Part shown: positions 3,206 through 63,634 of the stretch, piece by piece
How the letters are laid out: every line of letters begins with the position of its first letter
How positions within the stretch are numbered: position 1 is the first letter of the stretch
Source of the DNA: a virus
Taxonomy: Duplodnaviria > Caudoviricetes
Reading direction: 5' to 3' (one strand)
IMG/VR virus record: IMGVR_UViG_3300033463_000076
Span: 16,113-80,112 of that record
Length of the DNA: 64,000 bases
Program-made: the position numbers and the translations under genes
Notes under the pieces: generated by a model
Database searches by the model: none
Told to the model about the DNA's origin: nothing
Seen by the model: the letters and a program-made list of their open reading frames with translations, nothing else

Positions 3206-6200
3206 CTATAAATTCTTAGTGTTGTTAGCAATATCCTCGAGCGAACCGCCCAGCTTCACATACATCAGCTTGGCATATCGCACCATATCCTCCAAATAGC
3301 CCGTCGATGTGAACACGAGGGCACGAATCTCAGAGACGTCACTGGCCATGGACGAACTGAACGTCACGATGCTTGTCAGGTGCTCCACAGCGAGAATCAT
3401 CTGACTGCTGATCGCGTCGTTCGATATCTGCAGGGCGGTAAATCGGCCGTTCAGCTCCTCGCCAGTGTCCTGACTCATGGCCTCGAAGCCCTTGGAACTG
3501 GCTTCCTGAGTGTAGGCACCGCCCGACCATCCCATAGACTTACGCAGTTCGTCACGCTCCTTCAAGGCATCGTTGACGATATCCTGGTACTCCTTCTTCA
3601 AGGCGTCCTGCTCCTGCTTCGTCAGTTCGCTTCCCGACTCAGAGGCTTCGGCGAAACTCTTGTACCACTGCTCCAGACGTGCCTTGTACTTCGACAGCAT
3701 CAGGCTCGAGATAATGGCGTTCTGCATATACTTCTCGAACTTCTCCGTGAACGTCTTGGCATCAGAGTCCATATCCATCAACTGGCTCTTGAAGTCCGAC
3801 GTGAGAGAGTCGAACGACATTCCAGTCAGCTGCTCACGTGCCTCCTCGACAGCCTTCTTCATTTCATCGTCTGCCTCGATAATCATGTCAAGGTACTTAC
3901 GGGCTTCCTCAGACAGCGACTGCCAGAACTGACGGTTGCTGTACTTCAGGTCACGCAGTTCGTCGGCAGACAGGTCAAACAGCCTTGATATATCACCGTT
4001 GGCTACATATTGGAACTGAGTACCCATAAAGTTCCTCAGCTCGGCACCCATACGCTTCGCCAGTTCGGGATCACTCTCCCACAGATATCCCCAGTTCGCG
4101 TCTCTGTTAGCCTCATAGCCGTTCGAGTGTGAGAACCAGCCGGCACCGTCAGAGGCCCAGGCACGGTACATTTCCGCTGCGGCCTTCTGCGTCAGTTCAA
4201 GGTCTCGCTCGGTCTTCGTCATAATAGCGGAAACACCCTCACCGTAGGCTTCCTCCATCAGCTTCTTCTCGTACTCAAGGTTATCCTTCCACGTGTCGAG
4301 CAGCCAGCCCCACTTCTTCGTAGCAGCCTCGAAGTTCTTAGTACCACCTCCGAAGACACCACTCATGTCGAAGCCGAACAGGCCACCTATACCCGATACC
4401 ACACCGCCGATGATATTACCCACGCCCTGTACGACGTTGGCGATAATCTGCGGCAGGTCTTTAAGGATGGCCTCAATGACCTTTGCAATCTTATTCAGGA
4501 TATCCTCGATGAACTGTGCAGGGTCTTCACCCAGCGCGTCGATAATCTGCAGGATGGCACCGATGATACCACCGACCTTTCCGCCTATCTCGCTGAACGT
4601 AGCGGCCACCTTCTTGCCGCTTCCAGATATCTGATTGATAAGGTTATAAATACCAGTTGCGAAGCCTCCCAGCGATCCCGACGTCAGCTGTCCCAGTATG
4701 GTGTCGAACTTCCTCAGTCCCTGAGTAGCGGAATCAGTAGCGCCTTTCAGGTTCTGGTTGGCCTTGTTCTTCTCCTCCTCGGTCTTCTTGACGGCCTCTG
4801 AGGACTCTGCGACGGCCTGGTTGGCCATGTCGACCTTCATCTGAGCCATCATCTTAGCGGTAGGCGTTGTGGCCTCCTGCAGCTCCTTCTCGGCTGCAAT
4901 CAGCTTATCGACAGCGTTCTTATGTGTCTCTTGTGCGTTCAGGAAATCCCTAACCCTCTGCTTGTACTCGTCGGCATACTTGGCGATATCATCCCACGTC
5001 GATGCCTTGAACGGGCTGGCACTCTGAACACCACCTGCATCCACCAACTGGCTTCTGAGGTCATAGTAGGCTTTCTTGTCAGCAGCGTCGAGTTCCTTGA
5101 ACTCCTTCGTGTTCATGTATTCATCGACCTTCTGAAGCGTCTCTCTTGCGATACCCTCGAGGACGTTACCGATACCACCAAACACCTGATTCCAGTCGAT
5201 GCTCATAGCCATAGCCTGAGCGTTCACCTTAGACAGTGCGCTCTTCTTGTCAGCCTCGAGCATCATTTTACGGCTCTTGCTGTGTTCCTCGGCGATACGG
5301 CGGTCATACTCCTTGGATATGGCATAGCGCTGCTGTTCGAGCGTACCGTACTGCTTCAGGTAGTCGTACATGCCAGTCAGCTCGTCGACGTACCTCTGCT
5401 GTATGATACGTGAATAGTCGTTCTGCTCCTTCTCCAGCTGAGCCTTTATGAGATTGTTCTGGTCCTCGGACAGCGTGACACCCTGCCAGCCCGCCTTACC
5501 CTCGGCTGTGTCCTCATAGACACCATCCTTGTGGGCATTCTCCCAGACGCGCTTGTTATGCTCATAGACGGCCTTCTTCATTTCCTCGGCCTGCTCCTCG
5601 ATCTGACGGATGTTACGGCGGTGCTGTTCGTCCTGCTCGGCACGTTCACGCTCGCCCTCGTTCCTTATATATGATATACGCACGTCACTGCGTGCATCGT
5701 CAAGTCTCTTGCGGAGGTCATCAAGCTCCTCCTGCCAGCGTCTCTCCTCCTGGAGTGCAGCGGCACGTCTCTTTGCGACATCGTTCGTACCGCCCTTCTT
5801 GCCAGAGGTGGAACCGCCATACTTCTGATACTGCTTCTTAGCGTCATCGACATCGGCCTGAAGCTGCTCGACCTTCTTATCAAACGTTTCCTTATCGACC
5901 TCGTCCTTCTGCTTGTAGTAGTCATCAAGGGCTTTCTCAGCGGCCTTCCACTTCGAGTAGGCATCGGCCTTCCACTGGGCTGCGGTCTTGGTAGGAGCGG
6001 CGCTTGCGCTTCTCTCGTACTTGCCAGTGACATAGTTGAAGTACATACCCTCCTTGCCGTTGTTCCTCGCATTCTCAAGACCCTCCTCGGCCTCCTTGTA
6101 GTGAATCTGGAAATACAGCGGAATGGTCGTGGCGCCAGTGGCCACCCAGCCGGCCTTCATGTTCAGGATATCGTCGAGGGCCTTCTGCTTCTCCTCCAGC

Positions 6201-11020: not shown

Positions 11021-12334
11021 CTAATCACCGTTTACGACGTATTCGGCTACAGCCTCAATCAGTGCCTCCTCGTCCTCGTCAGAGAGTTCGTTGGCCTTCT
11101 TGATGACGGTATCGTCCTTCGTCTTAGCGTTATACTTGCTGCCAGCAATCTTATTCAGAGCACGTACGAAGCCCTCCTTGGTGTAGGTGACCTCCTTGTA
11201 GGTAATCTGAACGTCCTCAACGTCTGCAGCCTCCTTGACCTCGTCAACCTCAGCGGCCTCGTCGATGTCGAGGGTGTAAATCTGGTCAACGTCCTCCAGG
11301 ATAGGAGCAACGAAGGCCTGACCACTTGTAACCTCGCGCAGCGGGTCAACCTTAGAGTAGTTCGAGATCAGCTTGAAGACGTCGACGAGCTTGTAGTTAA
11401 CCCACTTGACAGGGTTAGACTGCTCAGCCAGACGGCCGTAAACCAGCGTACCGACAACCTCGTTACAGATGAATACGAGGACGTTGCTTGCCCATGGCTT
11501 AACAGACTTCTTCTTGCCGTTCTTCTCACGGATGATGGTACGGTCGATGACACGGAAGGTCACGCCATACTCGTCCTCGAAGGCAGCGTTGAAGTTCTTG
11601 CTGTTAGGCACACCCAGACTGGTGTCGTCAGTGAACGAACGGCCCTCGAAAGAGGCAACCAGCTCACGTGCTCCACGGGTCTGACGCAGACGGTCGTATG
11701 CGGTCTTGGCGATACAAATCTGAATGATGCTGTTCTGGTCACGGTCACGTGCGGTGTCGAGTACACGCTTGATGTCCTCGATGGTCAGCTCACCCTTGGT
11801 GGTGACACCAAACTTATTCTTCTTCAGATAGTTGAAGTTCAGACGCATCAGAGACTTCTCAGGTGCATCGGGGTCTTCATCCTTAATGGCCACATAGCCG
11901 TGAGAGAGGGCGAACAGGAACGCATACTCATTCTGCTCGTCGATACCGACTGCACAGGCGACAGCATCGTCAGCAAGACGCTTGGCGATCTTCTGAGCGT
12001 TACCGCCCTGGGCAATCATCACGTTCAGGTTGTTGATGTCGGACTCCTTGAGGTACTTCTTCATACCAACCTTCGGGAGCTTACCATTTGCCGAAGCAAT
12101 GGTGTCACGGCTCTTCAAGGGGAGCTCAGAGTCAACAGCCACATAGTCGGCAGCAACGAACGTAGTGTTTACGGACGTGCTTTCCCACTTGTTATCGGGG
12201 GCAAACTCAGTGCCCAGCATTTCCTTATGGAGATAGGTCAGAGGGCGAGTGCGCTTCTCGTTGACCTTCTCGATGTAGCGCTGGAGTTTCGGGAAAAACT
12301 TCGCAACGTACTTGTAGAACAAACTTTTCTGCAT
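11021..12334 (-). CDS. Major capsid protein
   Basis: 437 aa; ADYVAVDSELPLKSR...GKLPKVGMKK resembles lambda-E-like capsids of Bacteroidales phages. C-terminal extension. Confidence 0.85.
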   Translation of the reverse strand: MQKSLFYKYVAKFFPKLQRYIEKVNEKRTRPLTYLHKEMLGTEFAPDNKWESTSVNTTFVAADYVAVDSELPLKSRDTIASANGKLPKVGMKKYLKESDINNLNVMIAQGGNAQKIAKRLADDAVACAVGIDEQNEYAFLFALSHGYVAIKDEDPDAPEKSLMRLNFNYLKKNKFGVTTKGELTIEDIKRVLDTARDRDQNSIIQICIAKTAYDRLRQTRGARELVASFEGRSFTDDTSLGVPNSKNFNAAFEDEYGVTFRVIDRTIIREKNGKKKSVKPWASNVLVFICNEVVGTLVYGRLAEQSNPVKWVNYKLVDVFKLISNYSKVDPLREVTSGQAFVAPILEDVDQIYTLDIDEAAEVDEVKEAADVEDVQITYKEVTYTKEGFVRALNKIAGSKYNAKTKDDTVIKKANELSDEDEEALIEAVAEYVVNGD

Positions 12335-12347
12335 GGCTTACAAATTT

Positions 12348-12746
12348 TTAATCGTGTTGAAAATCAATGTGAGGCAATGCTGTCTTCAACGTAGCCTTGA
12401 GAGCGGCAGTGATAGGATAAGGGCTTGCGAGGTCGTTCACCTCACCCCAAGTCATAATACCTACGAACGGCTCCTTGACGGACTTCGTCGCACGGCATAC
12501 ACCAGCATACTCGTAGCCATTTGGAAGGCTAACGTAGCTGCCATTCGAAACACCCAGAGGCTTGTACTCAGGGTCTTCCTTGTCCGATTCACGGATAATC
12601 AGCTGGCCGGCACGGATGTAATCCTCGTTGTAACCGTCAACGTTGAGCACCTTGCCACCCTCGATACCCTTGAAGTCAGCTCGGATGACGATAGGGTCAT
12701 TCTCGAAGCTGAAGGACTCCATAGAACCAATGTCAATTTTACCCAT
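12348..12746 (-). CDS. Head decoration protein (putative)
   Basis: 132 aa directly upstream of the capsid gene. Confidence 0.55.
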   Translation of the reverse strand: MGKIDIGSMESFSFENDPIVIRADFKGIEGGKVLNVDGYNEDYIRAGQLIIRESDKEDPEYKPLGVSNGSYVSLPNGYEYAGVCRATKSVKEPFVGIMTWGEVNDLASPYPITAALKATLKTALPHIDFQHD

Positions 12747-12783
12747 TTTACTTAATCTTTTTTGTGACTCCGAAACCAGCGGA

Positions 12784-13590
12784 CTACATATCTACGAGCT
12801 CGTCGATCTCATCGTCGGTGTACGGCTCCTCTTCCTGACTGTCGTCGTCTTCCGACTTGGAACCCTTAGTGCTGGGGGGAGCACCTAACTTACCCAGACC
12901 ACTCTTCTTGCGTTCCTTATTCATTTCCTCGAGGTCGTCACGAACTTCGTCCAGGAACTCCTCGAAATCGTCCTCGTCATCGAACTCCTGCTTTTCGAAG
13001 CGGCGGAGTACCGACTTGCCGAACGTTCCCGTGTTTTCCAGGACCTTCTCAAGACGCTTGCGGCGGCGGTCAACGGTCTTGTCACCCTTGAGCTTGGCGA
13101 TTTCGTCGTTCTGACTCTTCACCAGCTTTGTCAGATTCTTGATCTGTCTGGAGAGATAGTCGTTGTGACCGTCGTCATCGTCATCCTCGTCGTCATCTTC
13201 GTCATCGTCCTTAGACTTCTTGGACTTACCGCCCTTCTTGGACTTCTTCGACTTCTTTGGTTTCTTGCCTTTCGGCTCGTCATCATCGTCATCGTCGTCG
13301 TCATCATCCTCGTCATCATCGTCCTCGTCATCATCATCGTCATCCCCACGGGCTGCTTCCAACTTGCGACGGACAATGCGGCTCGAATGTTTCTGAGCGG
13401 CTTCGATGTAAGGGATTGCGTCATCGATAGCATTTTCGATGGCATTCGCTACATCCTCGTCAGAGGCGTCTTCCTCGATGTCGAGTTTTTTGGCAATGGT
13501 AGCGGCAAAACTCTCAACATCCTTGCGCTCGAATCCGTACCTCTTCACCTTCGGTTTCAGCGCTTTGATTACTTGCTGTAAATACTTCAT
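12784..13590 (-). CDS. Capsid scaffolding-like protein with a poly-Asp/Lys low-complexity tract
   Basis: Likely start MKYLQQVIK at 13590; long acidic runs; position upstream of the decoration and capsid genes. Confidence 0.55.
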   Translation of the reverse strand: MKYLQQVIKALKPKVKRYGFERKDVESFAATIAKKLDIEEDASDEDVANAIENAIDDAIPYIEAAQKHSSRIVRRKLEAARGDDDDDDEDDDDEDDDDDDDDDDEPKGKKPKKSKKSKKGGKSKKSKDDDEDDDEDDDDDGHNDYLSRQIKNLTKLVKSQNDEIAKLKGDKTVDRRRKRLEKVLENTGTFGKSVLRRFEKQEFDDEDDFEEFLDEVRDDLEEMNKERKKSGLGKLGAPPSTKGSKSEDDDSQEEEPYTDDEIDELVDM

Positions 13591-13621
13591 TACTCTTTGC
13601 TTTAGTTTAATGATTATTACT

Positions 13622-13729
13622 AAAAAAGGTCCACGCAGAGCCGAAACGCTGCGCAGACCGGACACTCTATAAGAGCAATGAGAGTCTTTTCGTCCTTACT
13701 GGGTGGCGTACAGCTTCATACGCTTTCTG
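13622..13729 (-). ncRNA. Candidate small RNA / structured leader displaying CAUUGCUCUUA in a hairpin loop
   Basis: Promoter at 13734-13764; hairpins GCGTA/TACGC and ACTCT-[CATTGCTCTTAT]-AGAGT; terminator GCGCAG/CTGCGT plus GTCC/GGAC and T6. Confidence 0.6.
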
Positions 13730-13733
13730 ACCG

Positions 13734-13766
13734 CAAAAATAGTTAAATCTATTTGAAAAACAAATA
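13734..13766 (-). promoter_or_regulatory. Promoter (TTTG-N19-TATTTTTG) with TATTTG-N5-CAAATA operator
   Basis: -7 box 13734-13741, operator 13750-13766. Confidence 0.7.
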
Positions 13767-13804
13767 AACTACGCATTTTTAACAATCTTTATTATATAAC
13801 AATA

Positions 13805-13832
13805 GGAGTAGGCGAGAAATCCCACCTACTCC
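13805..13832 (-). terminator. Intrinsic terminator
   Basis: GGAGTAGG/CCTACTCC 8-bp hairpin downstream of the 13863 gene. Confidence 0.65.
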
Positions 13833-13862
13833 CTTGAAACAAGTGTTAGCAATGAAACGGCC

Positions 13863-14429
13863 TCAGAAATTGAAGTCGTAGAACTTATACGGTTTCATCT
13901 GGGGGACATACCTCAGACCATAGGCATCATACCAACGACCGTCGGCGTGCAAGCGGATGGCCACCACCTCGCCCTCTGGATCGGGTTCTATCTTCCAGTC
14001 CTGAACCGAGTTATCGAAATGGCCGAGGAAACCGCCCATGACGAACGAAGTAGACCGTCTCTGCTTGCTCTCCTCCGTTTCCTCTGCCTTCATACGTCTT
14101 ACCATCCACAGCTTCTCCGTGCGCTCCTCGATGACCTCATAGGGATTGGCGTCGGAGTGCAGGCACTGGGCCATGTACTTCTTCTCCAGTGACATGAAGG
14201 TGGCGTGCTGCAGCTCCTCCTTCAGCGACTTTATCTTCTCCTGGTACGGCTTCATCTTCGGCCAGTAGGCTTCCCATGCAGTATGCCTTGCCTCCTCAGT
14301 ACCGCCACTGGCTACAATATGTGACACACGCTCCATATTGACCTCATTCAGTTTCAACTCGTTGTCTGCAATGAGCTGGTTCAGCTCCATTGCGTAGGAA
14401 ATCCATTCTTCTCTTTTCATATCAAACAA
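13863..14429 (-). CDS. Hypothetical phage protein
   Basis: 188 aa ORF tightly packed in the early-gene operon. Confidence 0.7.
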   Translation of the reverse strand: MFDMKREEWISYAMELNQLIADNELKLNEVNMERVSHIVASGGTEEARHTAWEAYWPKMKPYQEKIKSLKEELQHATFMSLEKKYMAQCLHSDANPYEVIEERTEKLWMVRRMKAEETEESKQRRSTSFVMGGFLGHFDNSVQDWKIEPDPEGEVVAIRLHADGRWYDAYGLRYVPQMKPYKFYDFNF

Positions 14430-14659
14430 ATATAACCGTTATATCCACTCTTCTCCATAGCCCTGCCTATCTTCACCAGTCTGTTAAAGAACAGCGTGGC
14501 CGTCACGAAATCCGCCATGGCCTTGTTCCACTGGCGCTTGCCCTTCGGCGGGTCATCGAACGTATAGATGACATCCTTTCCGTTGCTGAGGTGCCAAGCT
14601 ATAGCGTTGTCGTTATGGCTCAGGTCACCCAGTGCTGCCGTCTCTTCTATCCTAATCAT
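14417..14659 (-). CDS. Hypothetical protein
   Basis: 80 aa, overlaps its neighbours as in an operon. Confidence 0.6.
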   Translation of the reverse strand: MIRIEETAALGDLSHNDNAIAWHLSNGKDVIYTFDDPPKGKRQWNKAMADFVTATLFFNRLVKIGRAMEKSGYNGYICLI

Positions 14660-14879
14660 CTTTCTTTTCTATCAACTTGTTCAACGTCTCTATCTGAACA
14701 CTTACACCGAGAATCGCATCAGCCTTTGAACTGACAAGACCTGCAAGCCTCTGATCATCCTTCGACTTACGGCCGTACTCATTGAAGAAGTTCTGACTGA
14801 TACGGCTGATAGCGTCTGCCTCCTTCCTCAGACGCCCTGCCACGTTCTCCAGTTCCCTGACGATGTACTGCCTTTCCAT
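14652..14879 (-). CDS. Hypothetical protein
   Basis: 75 aa, operon packing. Confidence 0.6.
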   Translation of the reverse strand: MERQYIVRELENVAGRLRKEADAISRISQNFFNEYGRKSKDDQRLAGLVSSKADAILGVSVQIETLNKLIEKKDD

Positions 14880-14880
14880 A

Positions 14881-15375
14881 CTACCTACCGAAATCAGTGA
14901 TATCTACAACCTCCACACCAAAGCCTCTTTCCCTCAGATAGTCGGCGTACTTCTGGAAACGCTCACTATCGATGTAGACGAAATCGTAATTGTCAGGCTC
15001 CGAACAGCAGAGCCTCAGACCAAGCATCCCTGAAACCAATCGTGCATCAGTGAACCAAGCCGTGTACTGGTGCTGCTCCTTGAAGAACAGCAGCTTGCGT
15101 TCGTAACCGACGGACTTCGTGATATACGTCTCGAGCATGAACTTCTTCAGTGCCATGCTCCCAAGTTCACCAAGGGCTACGTGCAGGAACATCGTACCGA
15201 TATCATCGGGCGTTGCCTCGTCATTGTCACTGCGAACTATCAGCGTGCAGTTGCCGGCATAGTTCGAATACTTGACCTGCAGTCCCAGATACGACTTGCC
15301 GTCCATGACCTTCTGCATCGTCTTGCAGGTCTGCTCCGTGAAGAAACCCAGTTCCTCAAATATCTTCTCTACCAT
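14881..15375 (-). CDS. Hypothetical protein
   Basis: 164 aa, operon packing. Confidence 0.65.
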   Translation of the reverse strand: MVEKIFEELGFFTEQTCKTMQKVMDGKSYLGLQVKYSNYAGNCTLIVRSDNDEATPDDIGTMFLHVALGELGSMALKKFMLETYITKSVGYERKLLFFKEQHQYTAWFTDARLVSGMLGLRLCCSEPDNYDFVYIDSERFQKYADYLRERGFGVEVVDITDFGR

Positions 15376-15376
15376 A

Positions 15377-15700
15377 TTACTCTCCTTTCGTTGCGTTTAA
15401 CAATTCATCTATCTTCTCCATCTGGCCCATCAGCTTCCTGTTGACGAACTCCAACTGGTCTGCGATGCTCTCAAGCCGTGTGATATCCTCTCCGGCCATC
15501 AGGTGTAACTCGAACGACTGATAAGGCTCCCAGACGTTCTTGTTGAACCACTCGTCGGTGACGTTGCCTTTCTTCAGCTCCTCAAGCCAGTGGTCATACC
15601 AGTCAGACTTCTTACAACTGGCCTCATTGTACTCCTTTCTCAGTTCGAGGGCTGCAGCCTTCATCATGCAGACGACCTCGTGCAATCTCTTCTTATCCAT
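15377..15700 (-). CDS. Hypothetical protein
   Basis: 107 aa, operon packing. Confidence 0.6.
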   Translation of the reverse strand: MDKKRLHEVVCMMKAAALELRKEYNEASCKKSDWYDHWLEELKKGNVTDEWFNKNVWEPYQSFELHLMAGEDITRLESIADQLEFVNRKLMGQMEKIDELLNATKGE

Positions 15701-15703
15701 GGC

Positions 15704-16012
15704 TTAACACTTTGTTACTGAACCTGAAACGATGTACGTCTTAACAGCGAACTTGGCTGCTATCTCATAGGGGACACGCTCACAGTGATGGTCCATTTCC
15801 CACTTCTGACAGAACTGCTCACCCTCCTGGGATATGCAGAGGACTATCTTGCCCTCAGCTGAGCGGTTGACCATTTCCTGCAAGGCGTTGATGCAATCGA
15901 GGCAGAGATAAGCACTGCTGCGCCTCATTGACTTCGGATCAAACGAATAGACGTTGAACTTTCCGTCTGTCTGCTTGTAGTATTCTACTACTTTCTTCTG
16001 TGTTACTTTCAT
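15704..16012 (-). CDS. Hypothetical early protein (TAAGAGCAATG-tagged)
   Basis: 102 aa, first gene after repeated promoter block 1. Confidence 0.7.
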   Translation of the reverse strand: MKVTQKKVVEYYKQTDGKFNVYSFDPKSMRRSSAYLCLDCINALQEMVNRSAEGKIVLCISQEGEQFCQKWEMDHHCERVPYEIAAKFAVKTYIVSGSVTKC

Positions 16013-16160
16013 TGCTCTTACTTGTTTAAAACGATGTTTCTTAATGTTCCTTTATTATGGTGTAAAGGTAGTGATTTTTTTCCAATTATGCAAGCAAAAC
16101 ACCCATTATTTTGTTAACCAGACTTAACCAGCGGAAAGTTTAACTTTACCTAACTTTTGC
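16010..16160 (-). repeat. Repeated early promoter/leader block, copy 1
   Basis: TTGC...ACTACCTTTACA promoter (16071-16080), CATTAAGAAAC box (16036-16046), TAAGAGCAATG start, upstream TTAAC/CAAAAGTTAGG motifs. Confidence 0.8.
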
Positions 16161-16164
16161 AACG

Positions 16165-16259
16165 AAAAACGCGCCCTAACCTCACGGTCCGGACGCGCAA
16201 GAGAGCTTGGTCAGTCGCTAAGAGCAATCCAAACGACTGCCTTCTCTCATTAAGAAACG
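16165..16259 (-). ncRNA. Candidate antisense small RNA complementary to both leader boxes of the early genes
   Basis: Consensus promoter TTTG(16291-94)-N20-TATCTTTG(16263-70); GTTTCTTAATG at the 5' end; ATTGCTCTTA in the loop of a CAGTCG/CGACTG hairpin; terminator CGCGTCC/GGGCGCG with GTGA tetraloop plus T5. Confidence 0.7.
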
Positions 16260-16308
16260 CTGCAAAGATAGAACATTTTTTCTGTCCTACCAAATTTTCT
16301 ACGATATT

Positions 16309-17880
16309 TCATCTTCTCGGCCTAATCTTTCTCATAATCTCGGCGTCTGACATCGTATCGATCTTCGGATAGAACGTGTTGGCCAGTGCATCCATCCAGT
16401 CGGGCGACCGTCCGAGGCGTTCCTTGATATCGTCCTTCGGCTCTATGATGATACGGCCGTCGCTCTGGAACTTCCAGTGCGTATTGATAGCCTCCTCCAT
16501 CAGTTGCTCACACGGCGGCAGTGCTGGGTAGTAGCCGTTCTTCGGGTCGAGCCATTCCCTGACCTTCCAATACAGGTACGCCCTCATGTTGGCGAACTCT
16601 ATCTGCCCAGTGCTGTCCTTGAACCCCTTGACACCCTCCGAGAACTTGCAGGAATAGACGTTCATCTTATACGTAGCCCTCGACTGCTCGTTCAGCTCCT
16701 TCAGCCTCGAGTAGACACCGGCACCCTCACCGATGGTATCGATGAAGGCCTTGTCACGCTTCCTGTCCGTCAGGGCATTGACAACCATGCCGACAACGTG
16801 CATATGGTCGGCCTGACCTGCCGACTGGTGGGCAATGAACTGCGGCACGTAGTTGCCGTATCGGGGACACAGGATAGAAGCGTCTCGACCCATACCGGCC
16901 ACGTCGACACCCAGCAGGCATGACTTCTTGGGCTTGAACTTCTCTTCCTGCAGCTCCTTCCACCTGTTGACGGCCAGCTCGATCCACTCGTACGGTATGA
17001 GGGTATCGGTAGACACCTTCGGGAACAGACCCAGCACCTTGACACGGAACAGGTCGTTAGGACGGTAGTAGTTACCCTCCCACTCGAAATCGCCGTCGCC
17101 TACGATGAAGTCGTCCTTACTGATCTTCGTGCACCACGTCTTGACCTTCTCGGCCACCCACCTATAGTCCACCTGACCAGGAATCAGGTTCTGCTTCGTC
17201 ACGACATTCTCAGCATTGAGCGAGTTCAGACGGAACTTCTGAAAGCGGTCCTGAGTCATCGCCTTGGCGGCATAGCCCGTAGGGATGTTAGGGTTGAACA
17301 CCAGCAGCAGACGAGAGTTACCTTGCAGGTTACCCTCGATGGCGTTGAAAATCGTCTCTGAGATACCAGTGGCCTCGGTCACGACGAACATCACGTTAGC
17401 GGCATGGAATCCTGACCACGCCTCCGTAGCGTTGTTGTCGGCCTTGAATCCCGTCAAGAACCACTCGGCATAGTCCGTACGGATATCGTTCGCCACCAGT
17501 CTGCCAGGACAGGCAAACGGGAACTTGGCCCTTGCGGCCTTAACAAGTCTGTGGATTTCAGGCTTCATGATGTTCTCCACCTGACGGCCTGTAGGTGCGG
17601 TCATGGCGACCTTCGTGTTTTCCGACAGTATCTTTCCCGTAGGGTCGAACCTCGGCGTGAGATACATGAAGCATAATGAAGCGCAAGCGGCCACGAAGTC
17701 CTTACCTCGCGCTGTGCCGCTTGCTACTGCGGTCAGTGGATTGACCTGCACGGACTCAATGATAGCCTGCTGCTCTCTGTCAAGCCTTGCGCCCAACACG
17801 TCGCGTACAAACCTGTTCCAATCCTCTGCCCAATACTTAATCGCTTCATTTATCAGCCTCTGTCTCTCGGTGAGATTCAT
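16309..17880 (-). CDS. terL: Terminase large subunit
   Basis: Walker A-like VASGTARGKD, Walker B-like VVTEATG, nuclease GVDVAGMGRD and C-terminal GRSPDWMDAL. Confidence 0.92.
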   Translation of the reverse strand: MNLTERQRLINEAIKYWAEDWNRFVRDVLGARLDREQQAIIESVQVNPLTAVASGTARGKDFVAACASLCFMYLTPRFDPTGKILSENTKVAMTAPTGRQVENIMKPEIHRLVKAARAKFPFACPGRLVANDIRTDYAEWFLTGFKADNNATEAWSGFHAANVMFVVTEATGISETIFNAIEGNLQGNSRLLLVFNPNIPTGYAAKAMTQDRFQKFRLNSLNAENVVTKQNLIPGQVDYRWVAEKVKTWCTKISKDDFIVGDGDFEWEGNYYRPNDLFRVKVLGLFPKVSTDTLIPYEWIELAVNRWKELQEEKFKPKKSCLLGVDVAGMGRDASILCPRYGNYVPQFIAHQSAGQADHMHVVGMVVNALTDRKRDKAFIDTIGEGAGVYSRLKELNEQSRATYKMNVYSCKFSEGVKGFKDSTGQIEFANMRAYLYWKVREWLDPKNGYYPALPPCEQLMEEAINTHWKFQSDGRIIIEPKDDIKERLGRSPDWMDALANTFYPKIDTMSDAEIMRKIRPRR

Positions 17881-29440: not shown

Positions 29441-29590
29441 TGCTCTTAATTTTTTAAAAACGTTTCTTAATATGTTTATTGTTTACACTTGTAAAGGTAG
29501 TGAATTTTCTCGAATTGTGCAAGGGTTACGCTCTTTATTTTGTTAACCGGACTTAACTGGCGAAGAGTTTAACCTTTCCTAACTTTTGAC
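29438..29590 (-). repeat. Repeated early promoter/leader block, copy 2
   Basis: TACCTTTACA 29490-29499, ATTAAGAAAC 29462-29471, TAAGAGCAATG start. Confidence 0.8.
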
Positions 29591-29973: not shown

Positions 29974-30120
29974 TGCTCTTACTTCTTTTAGTTGTTTCTT
30001 AATGTTTTATTTTTATGATGTAAAGGTAGTGAAAAAGCGCGATATATGCAAGGTTTTCGGCGAAAAAATACTTAAAAAGTGTTCAGCGACCGATTATTTA
30101 ACCTTACCTAACTTTTGCAG
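29971..30120 (-). repeat. Repeated early promoter/leader block, copy 3
   Basis: TACCTTTACA 30019-30028, CATTAAGAAAC 29994-30004. Confidence 0.8.
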
Positions 30121-36868: not shown

Positions 36869-36990
36869 TGCTCTTAATTCTTTAAAAAACCGTTTCTTAA
36901 TGTTTTATTTTGATAGTGTAAAGGTAGTGAAAAACGGCGATATACGCAAGTATTTCAGTCTTTATTTTCTTAAAAAGTGTTCAACCAAAA
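36866..36990 (-). repeat. Repeated early promoter/leader block, copy 4
   Basis: TACCTTTACA 36917-36926, CATTAAGAAAC 36892-36902. Confidence 0.8.
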
Positions 36991-38494: not shown

Positions 38495-38671
38495 CTACAA
38501 TCTACCGAAGTGGGCATCTGCTCCACGCTTCGCTGATAAACAACTCGGATAGCCAGTAGCGTGCGTTACCATACTTCCATCATCCTGCACGGTTCCAACG
38601 TGCCAGTCCGGACGTGCAAACCTCTTTCCTGCGTTTGCGTTCCAAATCGAATAACCTTTGTACTTAATCAT
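38495..38671 (-). CDS. Small hypothetical protein (TAAGAGCAATG-tagged), missing from the ORF track
   Basis: 58 aa MIKYKGYSIWNANAGKRFARPDWHVG... starting at the conserved tag. Confidence 0.6.
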   Translation of the reverse strand: MIKYKGYSIWNANAGKRFARPDWHVGTVQDDGSMVTHATGYPSCLSAKRGADAHFGRL

Positions 38672-39382: not shown

Positions 39383-39526
39383 TGCTCTTACTTCTTTTTG
39401 ATGTTTCTTAATGTTTTTATTTATGGTGTAAAGGTAGTAAAAAAACACGATATTTGCAATAGATACACTCTTTATTTTGTTAACGAAACTTTAGCAGCGG
39501 AAAGATTAACCTTTCATAACTTTAGC
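39380..39526 (-). repeat. Repeated early promoter/leader block, copy 5
   Basis: TACCTTTACA 39427-39436, CATTAAGAAAC 39403-39413. Confidence 0.8.
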
Positions 39527-49584: not shown

Positions 49585-49730
49585 TGCTCTTACTTCTTTA
49601 AGTGTTTCTTAATGTTCCTTTTGATGTTGTAAAGGTAGTGAAAAAACACGATATTTGCAAGGTTTTCGCTCTTTATAAACTTAAAAAGTGTTCAACAGAC
49701 TCTTATTTAACCTTACCTAACTTTTGCATC
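49582..49730 (-). repeat. Repeated early promoter/leader block, copy 6
   Basis: TACCTTTACA 49628-49637, CATTAAGAAAC 49604-49614; very similar to copy 3. Confidence 0.8.
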
Positions 49731-62340: not shown

Positions 62341-62353
62341 ACATTTAAGAGCA

Positions 62354-63634
62354 ATGGCTACGACGAAATTCTATCTCGACACCCGTGCCGTGTCCGCTGG
62401 CGAACCGGCACCCCTCAAGATTGCTGTCACCAAGCACGGCAAGACAGCGCTGTACTCCCTCGACGTGAAGCTGCAGCCCTCCCAATGGGACAATCACAGG
62501 CAGGTCATCCTCAACCACCCCAACAAGCTACGCCTGAACAACTTCATCATGAACCGCAAGACGGTTTTCGACAACTACCTCATGGAACTGACCAATGCCG
62601 GCGAGCTGGCACTGATGTCAGCGACTCAGATCAAGAACAGGATAGCAGGGCTTATCAATCCCGACTATGCTCCTGAGCGTGCCGACCTGTTCATACCGAG
62701 GTACCTTGCATTCGCCGAAACGCGCAACGCCGAGCGTACCCGTGAAATCTATCTCGAGACCCACAAGAAGATACTGCGCTTCGACTCCAAGGCCAAGCGG
62801 CTGTCCTTCGAGGACATCACCAAGTCATGGCTCGACCGCTTCGAGCACTACCTTTCGAGTGAGGAACACCTCGCACCGAACACCATAGCCATCCACCTGC
62901 GCAACATCCGCGCCGTAGTGAACGAGGCCATCGATGACGAGGTGACGGGCACCTACGCCTTCCGCAAGAAGAAAATCAAGTACCAGGCAACACCCAAGCG
63001 CTCCTTCACCCTCGAGCGGCTGCAGGAACTCTGGAACTATCCGTGCGAGCCTTTCCAGCAGAAATACATCGACGCCTTCAAGCTGTCCTTCCTGCTCATA
63101 GGAATCAACGTCGTGGATATCTGCAAGCTGACCTCCCAGAACATCGTCGACGGACGGCTGGAGTACATACGCTCCAAGACCGGACGCTTCTACAGCATCA
63201 AACTCGAGCCCGAGGCCATCGAGATACTGGAGAGGTACAAGGGCAAGGAACTGCTCTTCGGCCCTGCCGAGGGCTTCAAGAAGTACAAGACGTTCTCCAA
63301 CTCCCTCGACCGAGGGCTGAAGAACATCGGGCCTGTCATCCAAGTCCCTAACCCTGACTGGAAGCGGGGATGCAAGAAACACAGATACCACATCGAGCGC
63401 ACTTCCGCTTTCCCTGGCATATCGATCTACTGGGCTCGTCACTCATGGGCGACCATTGCCGCCGAGATAGACGTGCCTGACGCTACGATATCGGCAGGAC
63501 TGGGGCACGGCCACGGCGATAAGACGACGGCCATCTATGTAAACTTCAGGCAGAGGAAAGTCGATGAAGCGAACAGGGATATCATCGACTACGTCTTGGG
63601 TGTTGTTAGGCAATGTAAAGGTAGTAATTTTTAG
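62354..63634 (+). CDS. int: Tyrosine integrase (TAAGAGCAATG-tagged)
   Basis: Arm-binding N-terminus, SAM-like domain, YWARHSWAT and LGH...TAIY catalytic boxes. Confidence 0.95.
   Translation: MATTKFYLDTRAVSAGEPAPLKIAVTKHGKTALYSLDVKLQPSQWDNHRQVILNHPNKLRLNNFIMNRKTVFDNYLMELTNAGELALMSATQIKNRIAGLINPDYAPERADLFIPRYLAFAETRNAERTREIYLETHKKILRFDSKAKRLSFEDITKSWLDRFEHYLSSEEHLAPNTIAIHLRNIRAVVNEAIDDEVTGTYAFRKKKIKYQATPKRSFTLERLQELWNYPCEPFQQKYIDAFKLSFLLIGINVVDICKLTSQNIVDGRLEYIRSKTGRFYSIKLEPEAIEILERYKGKELLFGPAEGFKKYKTFSNSLDRGLKNIGPVIQVPNPDWKRGCKKHRYHIERTSAFPGISIYWARHSWATIAAEIDVPDATISAGLGHGHGDKTTAIYVNFRQRKVDEANRDIIDYVLGVVRQCKGSNF

Follow-up and report, generated by a model that had tools for sequence, protein, structure and literature searches.

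The DNA analysed here, called the window, is a stretch of 64,000 nucleotides, running from base 16113 to base 80112 of a virus record in IMG/VR that is 80 kb long. It derives from a temperate Bacteroidales phage of the gut, having an integrase gene on the plus strand (62354-63634) and nearly all remaining genes on the minus strand. To our knowledge, regulation in Bacteroidales phages is almost unstudied, and their hosts possess no Hfq and initiate translation without Shine-Dalgarno pairing. At the locus, an accessory operon is followed by the capsid operon, in which the gene of an acidic scaffold-like protein comes first and that of the major head protein after it (Table 1). The terminator closing the accessory operon is also kept in L009, the closest relative, which was found through its capsid protein (89% identity). 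No protein family was assigned to the small proteins neighbouring the leader, and blastn against the phage collection returned no named phage relative, whether queried with the leader region or with the L019 lineage. In the accessory operon, between the terminase gene terL and the late leader, a 164-aa ORF (14881-15375, minus strand) matches MutS domain I with E = 1e-5.

Ahead of the scaffold gene lies a predicted transcript of about 108 nt, with a promoter and an intrinsic terminator at its ends and no conserved ORF on either strand, which is the untranslated 5' leader of the scaffold-capsid (late) operon. A preliminary description of this DNA had proposed a promoter at 13734 with an operator palindrome, a three-part leader of that length and a hairpin followed by T6 before the scaffold gene, and all of these were confirmed on the sequence and its predicted fold. 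The promoter matches TTTG/TAnnTTTG, the consensus of Bacteroides promoters, and it is invariant in L009; a sigma-70 scan gave no match to it, as expected for the Bacteroides form. The palindrome over the -33 element is identical in L009, L010 and L133, and further lineages have palindromes of other sequence in the same position over the promoter. It is probably a lineage-specific operator that gates the late promoter through presumed binding.

The leader is composed of a 5' hairpin (P1), a nested domain (P2/P3) and the terminator, with the P3 loop sitting 20 nt ahead of the latter. The fold energy of the whole leader is not unusual (z = -0.77), so its structure is supported by comparative data and not by folding energy. 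Regarding known RNA families, a search of positions 12500-17000 with the Rfam covariance models gave no match to the leader at E values up to 1. The sole hit in that search was a sub-threshold one to ctRNA_p42d, at 16161-16198.

Table 1. Positions of the leader, of the genes around it, of start tags and anti-tag units, and of comparable elements in relatives
Feature	Position	Strand	Basis or remark
Bacteroidota-type promoter: -33 TTTG (13764-13761), 19-nt spacer, -7 TATTTTTG (13741-13734)	13734-13764	minus	read from sequence
15-nt palindrome over the -33 element, operator-like	13751-13765	minus	read from sequence
P1, 6-bp hairpin with hexaloop GAAGCU	13706-13723	minus	predicted fold
P2/P3 domain: P2 arms 13695-13692 and 13663-13660, P3 arms 13685-13681 and 13668-13664	13660-13695	minus	MFE fold
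P3 loop, 12 nt; 13670-13680 exactly complementary to the 11-nt start tag	13669-13680	minus	
Intrinsic terminator: 11+2-bp stem with UUCG-type apex (13659-13628), then U6 (13627-13622)	13622-13659	minus	predicted fold
Scaffold ATG	13590	minus	read from sequence
Acidic scaffold-like protein, 268 aa, first gene of the capsid operon	12784-13590	minus	phrog_5824 and phrog_29
Major head protein, after the scaffold gene	11021-12334	minus	phrog_5824 and phrog_29
Intrinsic terminator closing the accessory operon upstream (genes from 16012 to 13863)	13804-13833	minus	terminator scan, 13 pairs
Large terminase (terL)	16309-17880	minus	
Anti-tag sRNA candidate behind terL	16165-16259	minus	fold z = -3.65
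Tagged start with repeated promoter-leader cassette (example)	16010-16020	minus	
Other exact tags (start codons)	29440, 29973, 36868, 38671, 39382, 49262, 49584, 58478, 61449	minus	
Integrase tag	62346-62356	plus	
Cassette copies	16020-16110, 29450-29540, 29980-30070, 36880-36970, 39390-39480, 49590-49680	minus	
terL-proximal anti-tag units in relatives	L019 ~4770-4870; G002-G008 'anti' sites		L019 in leader orientation
P1-like hairpins in relatives	G001 32385, 25115; G002 8020; G003 29783		leader-oriented coordinates
P1-like hairpins in relatives	G006 18166, 31847, 52859; G008 29252, 54178		leader-oriented coordinates

Start tags and the loop complementary to them

The start tag TAAGAGCAATG, of 11 nt, occurs in the window in 12 exact copies and in 16 copies with at most one mismatch, compared with 1.1 of the latter expected from shuffles of the window, and every exact copy ends in a start codon. 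The tagged genes are non-structural, encoding a Sak4-like annealing protein, a methyltransferase-like protein, the integrase and small ORFs, and the start of the RtcB gene is a tag with one mismatch. In all lineages examined, a phage contig carries between 5 and 10 tags and none or one copy of a control word. A role as a host-wide start context is ruled out, as the 10-mer of the tag is not enriched above its control word in two Parabacteroides host genomes, and so is pairing with the host 16S rRNA, which has no complement to the tag of 6 nt or more. Within the genomes compared, the start tag is a phage-specific feature. A promoter-leader cassette of ~90 nt, made of a -33 TTGC, a -7 TACCTTTA, a box CATTAAGAAAC and the tag, is found in at least six near-verbatim copies, and seven of the tags stand behind this repeated element.

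By chance, about 0.015 exact copies of the tag would fall on the wrong strand of the window, whose coding strand bears exactly two complements of the tag, each in a short promoter-to-terminator unit. One of them is the P3 loop of the capsid leader. As claimed earlier, the loop of the middle hairpin contains the reverse complement of the entire tag, seen as an exact 11-nt match on the plus strand at 13670-13680. The 13-nt pairing announced for the targets at 38671, 49262, 58478 and 61449 was also reproduced, with contiguous duplexes of at least 13 nt and energies of -19 to -23 kcal/mol, where the P3 stem must open for any pair beyond the twelfth. The loop is mostly unpaired in the predicted ensemble, and opening it costs 1.4 kcal/mol in the window, within a range of 0.07-3.5 kcal/mol that holds for nearly all lineages, the exception being L017 with 9.2 kcal/mol; in some lineages, the first four loop letters are able to pair inside the loop.

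The flanks of loop and tag do not covary, and the complementarity common to all lineages is limited to a core of 8-9 nt, which is itself too invariant in the loop for true loop-target covariation. Two variants bear on this point. The loop of L029 has two C-to-U changes, both of which still pair with a G of the tag as G-U, and in L112 the core has a C-to-A change, with tags that show fewer G and more T at the paired position (3/10 vs 10/108), the direction expected from pairing, as a trend at p = 0.08. A second box (ACAAAC) was considered as a target of the L019-type hairpin and dropped, being present in only 2 of 10 tag leaders.

The other complement belongs to the element behind terL. Between the window and L009, both antisense boxes of this element are unchanged, its linker varies and its terminator has compensatory changes. 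Other lineages have syntenic units of promoter, anti-tag, hairpin and U-run behind terL, including a lineage whose late leader lacks the anti-tag. Because its box order differs from that of an inverted cassette, the element is not a stray copy of it, and as judged by its comparison among relatives, this candidate sRNA is a conserved family of its own. Its layout consists of promoter, anti-tag, a hairpin with a GNRA-type loop and a U-run.

The leader family among related phages

The family was defined by regular expressions, RNAalifold and stem statistics. A search with the P1 word led to 89 IMG/VR viral contigs and two Parabacteroides genomes, and the exact hairpin word of the window was present in no other record among the viral contigs. 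The family members include a prophage of the cultured Parabacteroides faecalis (L108). The leader of L009 is almost identical to that of the window, and the promoter, P1, the loop word and a terminator are all retained in relatives whose identity is 66% for the capsid and 33% for the scaffold protein. A second sampling, based on the capsid protein and independent of P1, yielded further lineages, some of them with other P1 stems; down to L017, with a capsid identity of only 49%, the leader type with the anti-tag loop is conserved. Some capsid relatives possess different leaders, without P1.

As seen by RNAalifold on 17 lineages, two P1 pairs are changed on both sides (GC/AU 12:5 and AU/GC 10:7) around an unchanged GAAGNU loop, and the terminator helix, present in nearly all lineages, contains several compensatory pairs. 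The loop core CAUUGCUC is kept in approximately 16 of the 19 distinct lineages with P1-type leaders, including ones found through the capsid only, and the stems around it fall into at least six unrelated classes, with 15 distinct stems in 19 flank variants. Taken one by one, the loop stems surpass shuffled flanks only mildly, the Fisher combination of the six class p-values being ~0.004, and the nested P2/P3 architecture is seen again in relatives with different arm sequences. These alignments establish the covariation of P1, P3 and the terminator, the conservation of the loop and the membership of the family; on this comparative basis, the leader is a member of a widespread structured RNA family that is uncatalogued, being absent from Rfam.

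Conservation of the loop in relatives that keep the tag, on which the preliminary description had staked its antisense reading, thus has to be qualified: the core is kept in the lineages counted above and is missing in the most abundant one (61 of the 89 loci), which keeps its tags with no anti-tag in the middle hairpin. Two further lineages likewise keep the tags and have unrelated middle hairpins. Consequently, the leader loop is dispensable, and, as the most abundant lineage lacks it, it can at most duplicate what the terL-proximal sRNA does. In the L019 lineage, an apparent anti-tag was rejected, since it lies inside the capsid gene. In L133 (1647-1773), P1, P2 and the anti-tag are kept and the last hairpin is followed by no U-tract, so its terminator may be lost.

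Besides the capsid leader, relatives carry P1-like hairpins, with the GAAGNU loop, covarying stems and always on the coding strand, after the promoters of two to four other operons, located 10-17 nt before the start codon and accompanied by neither loop module nor terminator; in the window phage, P1 is found in the capsid leader only. Since in relatives it also heads other late operons, P1 looks like a general late-transcript signal, and its conserved loop and stem would probably constitute a protein-binding site. As those other operons carry P1 alone, the loop and terminator look like an inserted sRNA module, and the capsid leader would then appear as P1 plus this module, with the same design as the stand-alone sRNA behind terL. 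The other late operons with such hairpins encode portal-like and large tail proteins, the hairpins coming after promoters or terminators. It was also observed that P1 (13706-13723) and the apex and 3' arm of the terminator (13628-13659) are complementary to each other beyond shuffles (mean z = -2.5). This complementarity is present in the window and 13 relatives, and both partners change together in three classes.

Termination and RNA-library data

The RNA data come from four standard metatranscriptome runs, whose libraries do not assay small RNAs. In the bovine run, a 4.7-kb contig from a near-identical phage, with a depth of 159, covers 12700-13689, being 96% identical overall and 100% identical over 13583-13689, and bridges the terminator and the scaffold start; it is one contig, and DNA carry-over is possible. 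With that reservation, it is compatible with read-through transcripts having their 5' end just before P3. The contigs of the RNA libraries stop at 13689 (X1), 13696 (X8) and 13627 (X2), and the end at 13689 may be a processed 5' end between the 5' arm of P2 and P3. The bovine contig continues after 13689 into Illumina adapter sequence. No contig of the four runs covers 13697-13815, which includes the promoter and P1, a lack of cover that is not evidence in itself.

Regarding the passage of the terminator, it had been argued earlier that its presence implies antitermination for the expression of the capsid genes. A terminator does stand between the late promoter and the scaffold gene; the need for antitermination is a presumption, for which no N-, Q- or NusG-type protein was found. 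The 80-kb record contains no Phage_antitermQ or NusG domain and no identifiable N-like protein, so that the known antiterminator families were discarded as encoded candidates. A thermodynamic antiterminator switch or riboswitch was ruled out as well, as the terminator persists in the constrained folds of 7 lineages.

Possible roles of the leader

The best explanation, to which we give an even chance, is that of a late leader from an uncatalogued family whose loop acts as antisense to start tags. A host-type promoter, probably gated by an operator, would start the leader RNA with P1, the anti-tag P2/P3 domain and the intrinsic terminator. Transcripts stopping at the terminator, or processed 5' pieces of the read-through RNA, would carry the anti-tag loop, which would pair with the AGAGCAAUG start tags of early and accessory phage mRNAs, covering the start codon and so blocking initiation. 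Transcripts passing the terminator would become capsid mRNA, and the terL-proximal sRNA would exert the same repression as the loop. What we infer from sequence is that the promoter is used, that transcription terminates and a small RNA is freed, that pairing takes place in vivo, and with which sign and timing it acts. The leader probably doubles as a small antisense RNA, because its conserved loop is the exact complement of the early-gene start tag, and loop-tag pairing seems its most likely function, since the alternative needs two coincidences; overall, it is a credible antisense candidate with partial support. Against the antisense reading, Bacteroidota lack Hfq and no chaperone has been proposed. 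Shut-off of early translation at late times, as initially suggested, is one of several possible directions and timings, which presumably comprise either late shut-off or prophage silencing.

Small antisense RNAs made from operon leaders are exemplified by the c4 RNA of phages P1 and P7 and the CI RNA of satellite phage P4. Similarly, the RNA considered here would derive from a leader, and in those systems short loops pair at or near ribosome-binding regions and silence phage mRNAs. However, c4 and CI RNAs have two or three target sites, located in the operon that they come from, and their role is in prophage immunity, whereas the presumed targets here are about a dozen unlinked genes with a common start tag; in addition, this leader precedes the capsid operon of a Bacteroidales phage, shares no sequence similarity with them and has no Rfam match. 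In the literature on Bacteroides phages, no relevant described system was found. The leader can be described, with partial support, as a leader-derived phage antisense RNA candidate within a newly defined leader family.

The order of a late promoter, a short leader and an intrinsic terminator just before structural genes resembles PR'-tR' of lambda, with its 6S RNA and Q antitermination, but no Q-family protein was found here, and the leader has a conserved 5' hairpin and a candidate antisense loop; we know of no trans target of the lambda 6S RNA. P1 also recalls the boxB of the lambda N/nut system, being a short promoter-proximal hairpin whose purine-rich loop is conserved and whose stem covaries, and which is repeated at other operons of relatives. 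Unlike boxB, its hexaloop is not a GNRA-like pentaloop, there is no boxA, no terminator in the other operons and no N-like protein. Likewise, SreA and SreB of Listeria are prematurely terminated riboswitch leaders that act in trans as base-pairing sRNAs, with read-through giving the mRNA, although the present leader has neither a ligand-binding fold nor an alternative structure.

More broadly, we tentatively propose, at somewhat less than an even chance, that this family of temperate Bacteroidales phages uses a 'barcode' translation switch, in which a start tag unused by the host would mark early and accessory genes. Two anti-tag RNAs, the stand-alone one behind terL and the module within the capsid leader, would then turn off all tagged genes together, either upon firing of the late promoter or in the lysogen. 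If true, a phage-specific start tag together with antisense RNAs that fit it would constitute a novel means of controlling a set of genes through translation, and would also supply a compact, orthogonal control part for the engineering of gut Bacteroidales. Independently of the antisense reading, the large leader family outside Rfam and the P1 late-transcript hairpin are usable by annotation pipelines.

Other readings account for part of these observations. The leader could act in cis only, through termination and read-through or through stabilization of the mRNA, in which case the P3 loop would serve to bind RNA polymerase or some protein, and its match to the tag would be functionless. This is unlikely, although the terminator in nearly all lineages, the sharing of P1 with other late operons, the middle hairpin that still occupies this place in lineages with no anti-tag and the contig bridging the terminator all agree with it. 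It leaves as a coincidence the exact 11-nt complement of the most over-represented word of the genome, and as another one the identical complement in a second conserved sRNA candidate; moreover, no N-, Q- or NusG-like protein was found and constrained folds give no structure that competes with the terminator. Those same folds, where no upstream segment out-competes the terminator, together with its retention in lineages lacking the loop, speak against the reverse direction of control, in which abundant tagged early mRNAs would pair with the nascent leader loop, alter termination and so time capsid transcription, following the model of antisense-driven attenuation in pT181- or pIP501-type plasmids. 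We regard this as improbable, even if the loop lies 20 nt before the terminator and the complementarity between P1 and the terminator apex (mean z = -2.5), with its covariation between classes, hints at a control of the terminator at the RNA level.

Two further readings deny the loop its role. The tag on the plus strand (13670-13680) has a perfect match with an ATG and opens a frame of 22 codons, named from the beginning as a possible refutation of the antisense RNA if this ORF, starting at 13678, were the expressed product. This expectation fails, as the frame is not conserved, ranging from 7 to 31 codons among relatives (7 in one lineage group) and being shifted between the window and its closest relative, and no promoter cassette is present on the plus strand; a real gene antisense to the leader is the least probable of all readings. 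The 11-mer could be there by chance or be what is left of an inverted promoter-leader cassette; as the cassette is repeated seven times in the window, stray copies are conceivable, but only the 11-mer is present in the leader and the rest of the cassette is absent. Furthermore, the 11-mer resides in a covarying hairpin conserved down to 49% capsid identity, and the box order of the terL-proximal sRNA is unlike that of an inverted cassette, so the conservation data make this origin very improbable.

Finally, the loop could work in cis on the scaffold start 75 nt downstream, tuning the translation of the scaffold on read-through transcripts. The region of the scaffold start (13588-13597, minus strand) differs from the tag in one letter (C to T) and can pair with the loop through one G-U, and the duplex reaches -14.4 kcal/mol, or -15.9 kcal/mol with the whole leader. 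In the window and L009, such duplexes of -14 to -17 kcal/mol are matched by no shuffle, and L138 has the same scaffold start word. Yet in the other lineages only 5-8 pairs form at the start codon, with -4 to -10 kcal/mol and often within the range of shuffles. Since the match drops outside the window and L009, pairing with the scaffold start does not hold as a general rule and cannot explain the conservation of the loop across the family, and we assign it a small probability. Scaffold starts differing from the tag in one or two letters were also observed in L138 and L140, relatives without this type of leader.
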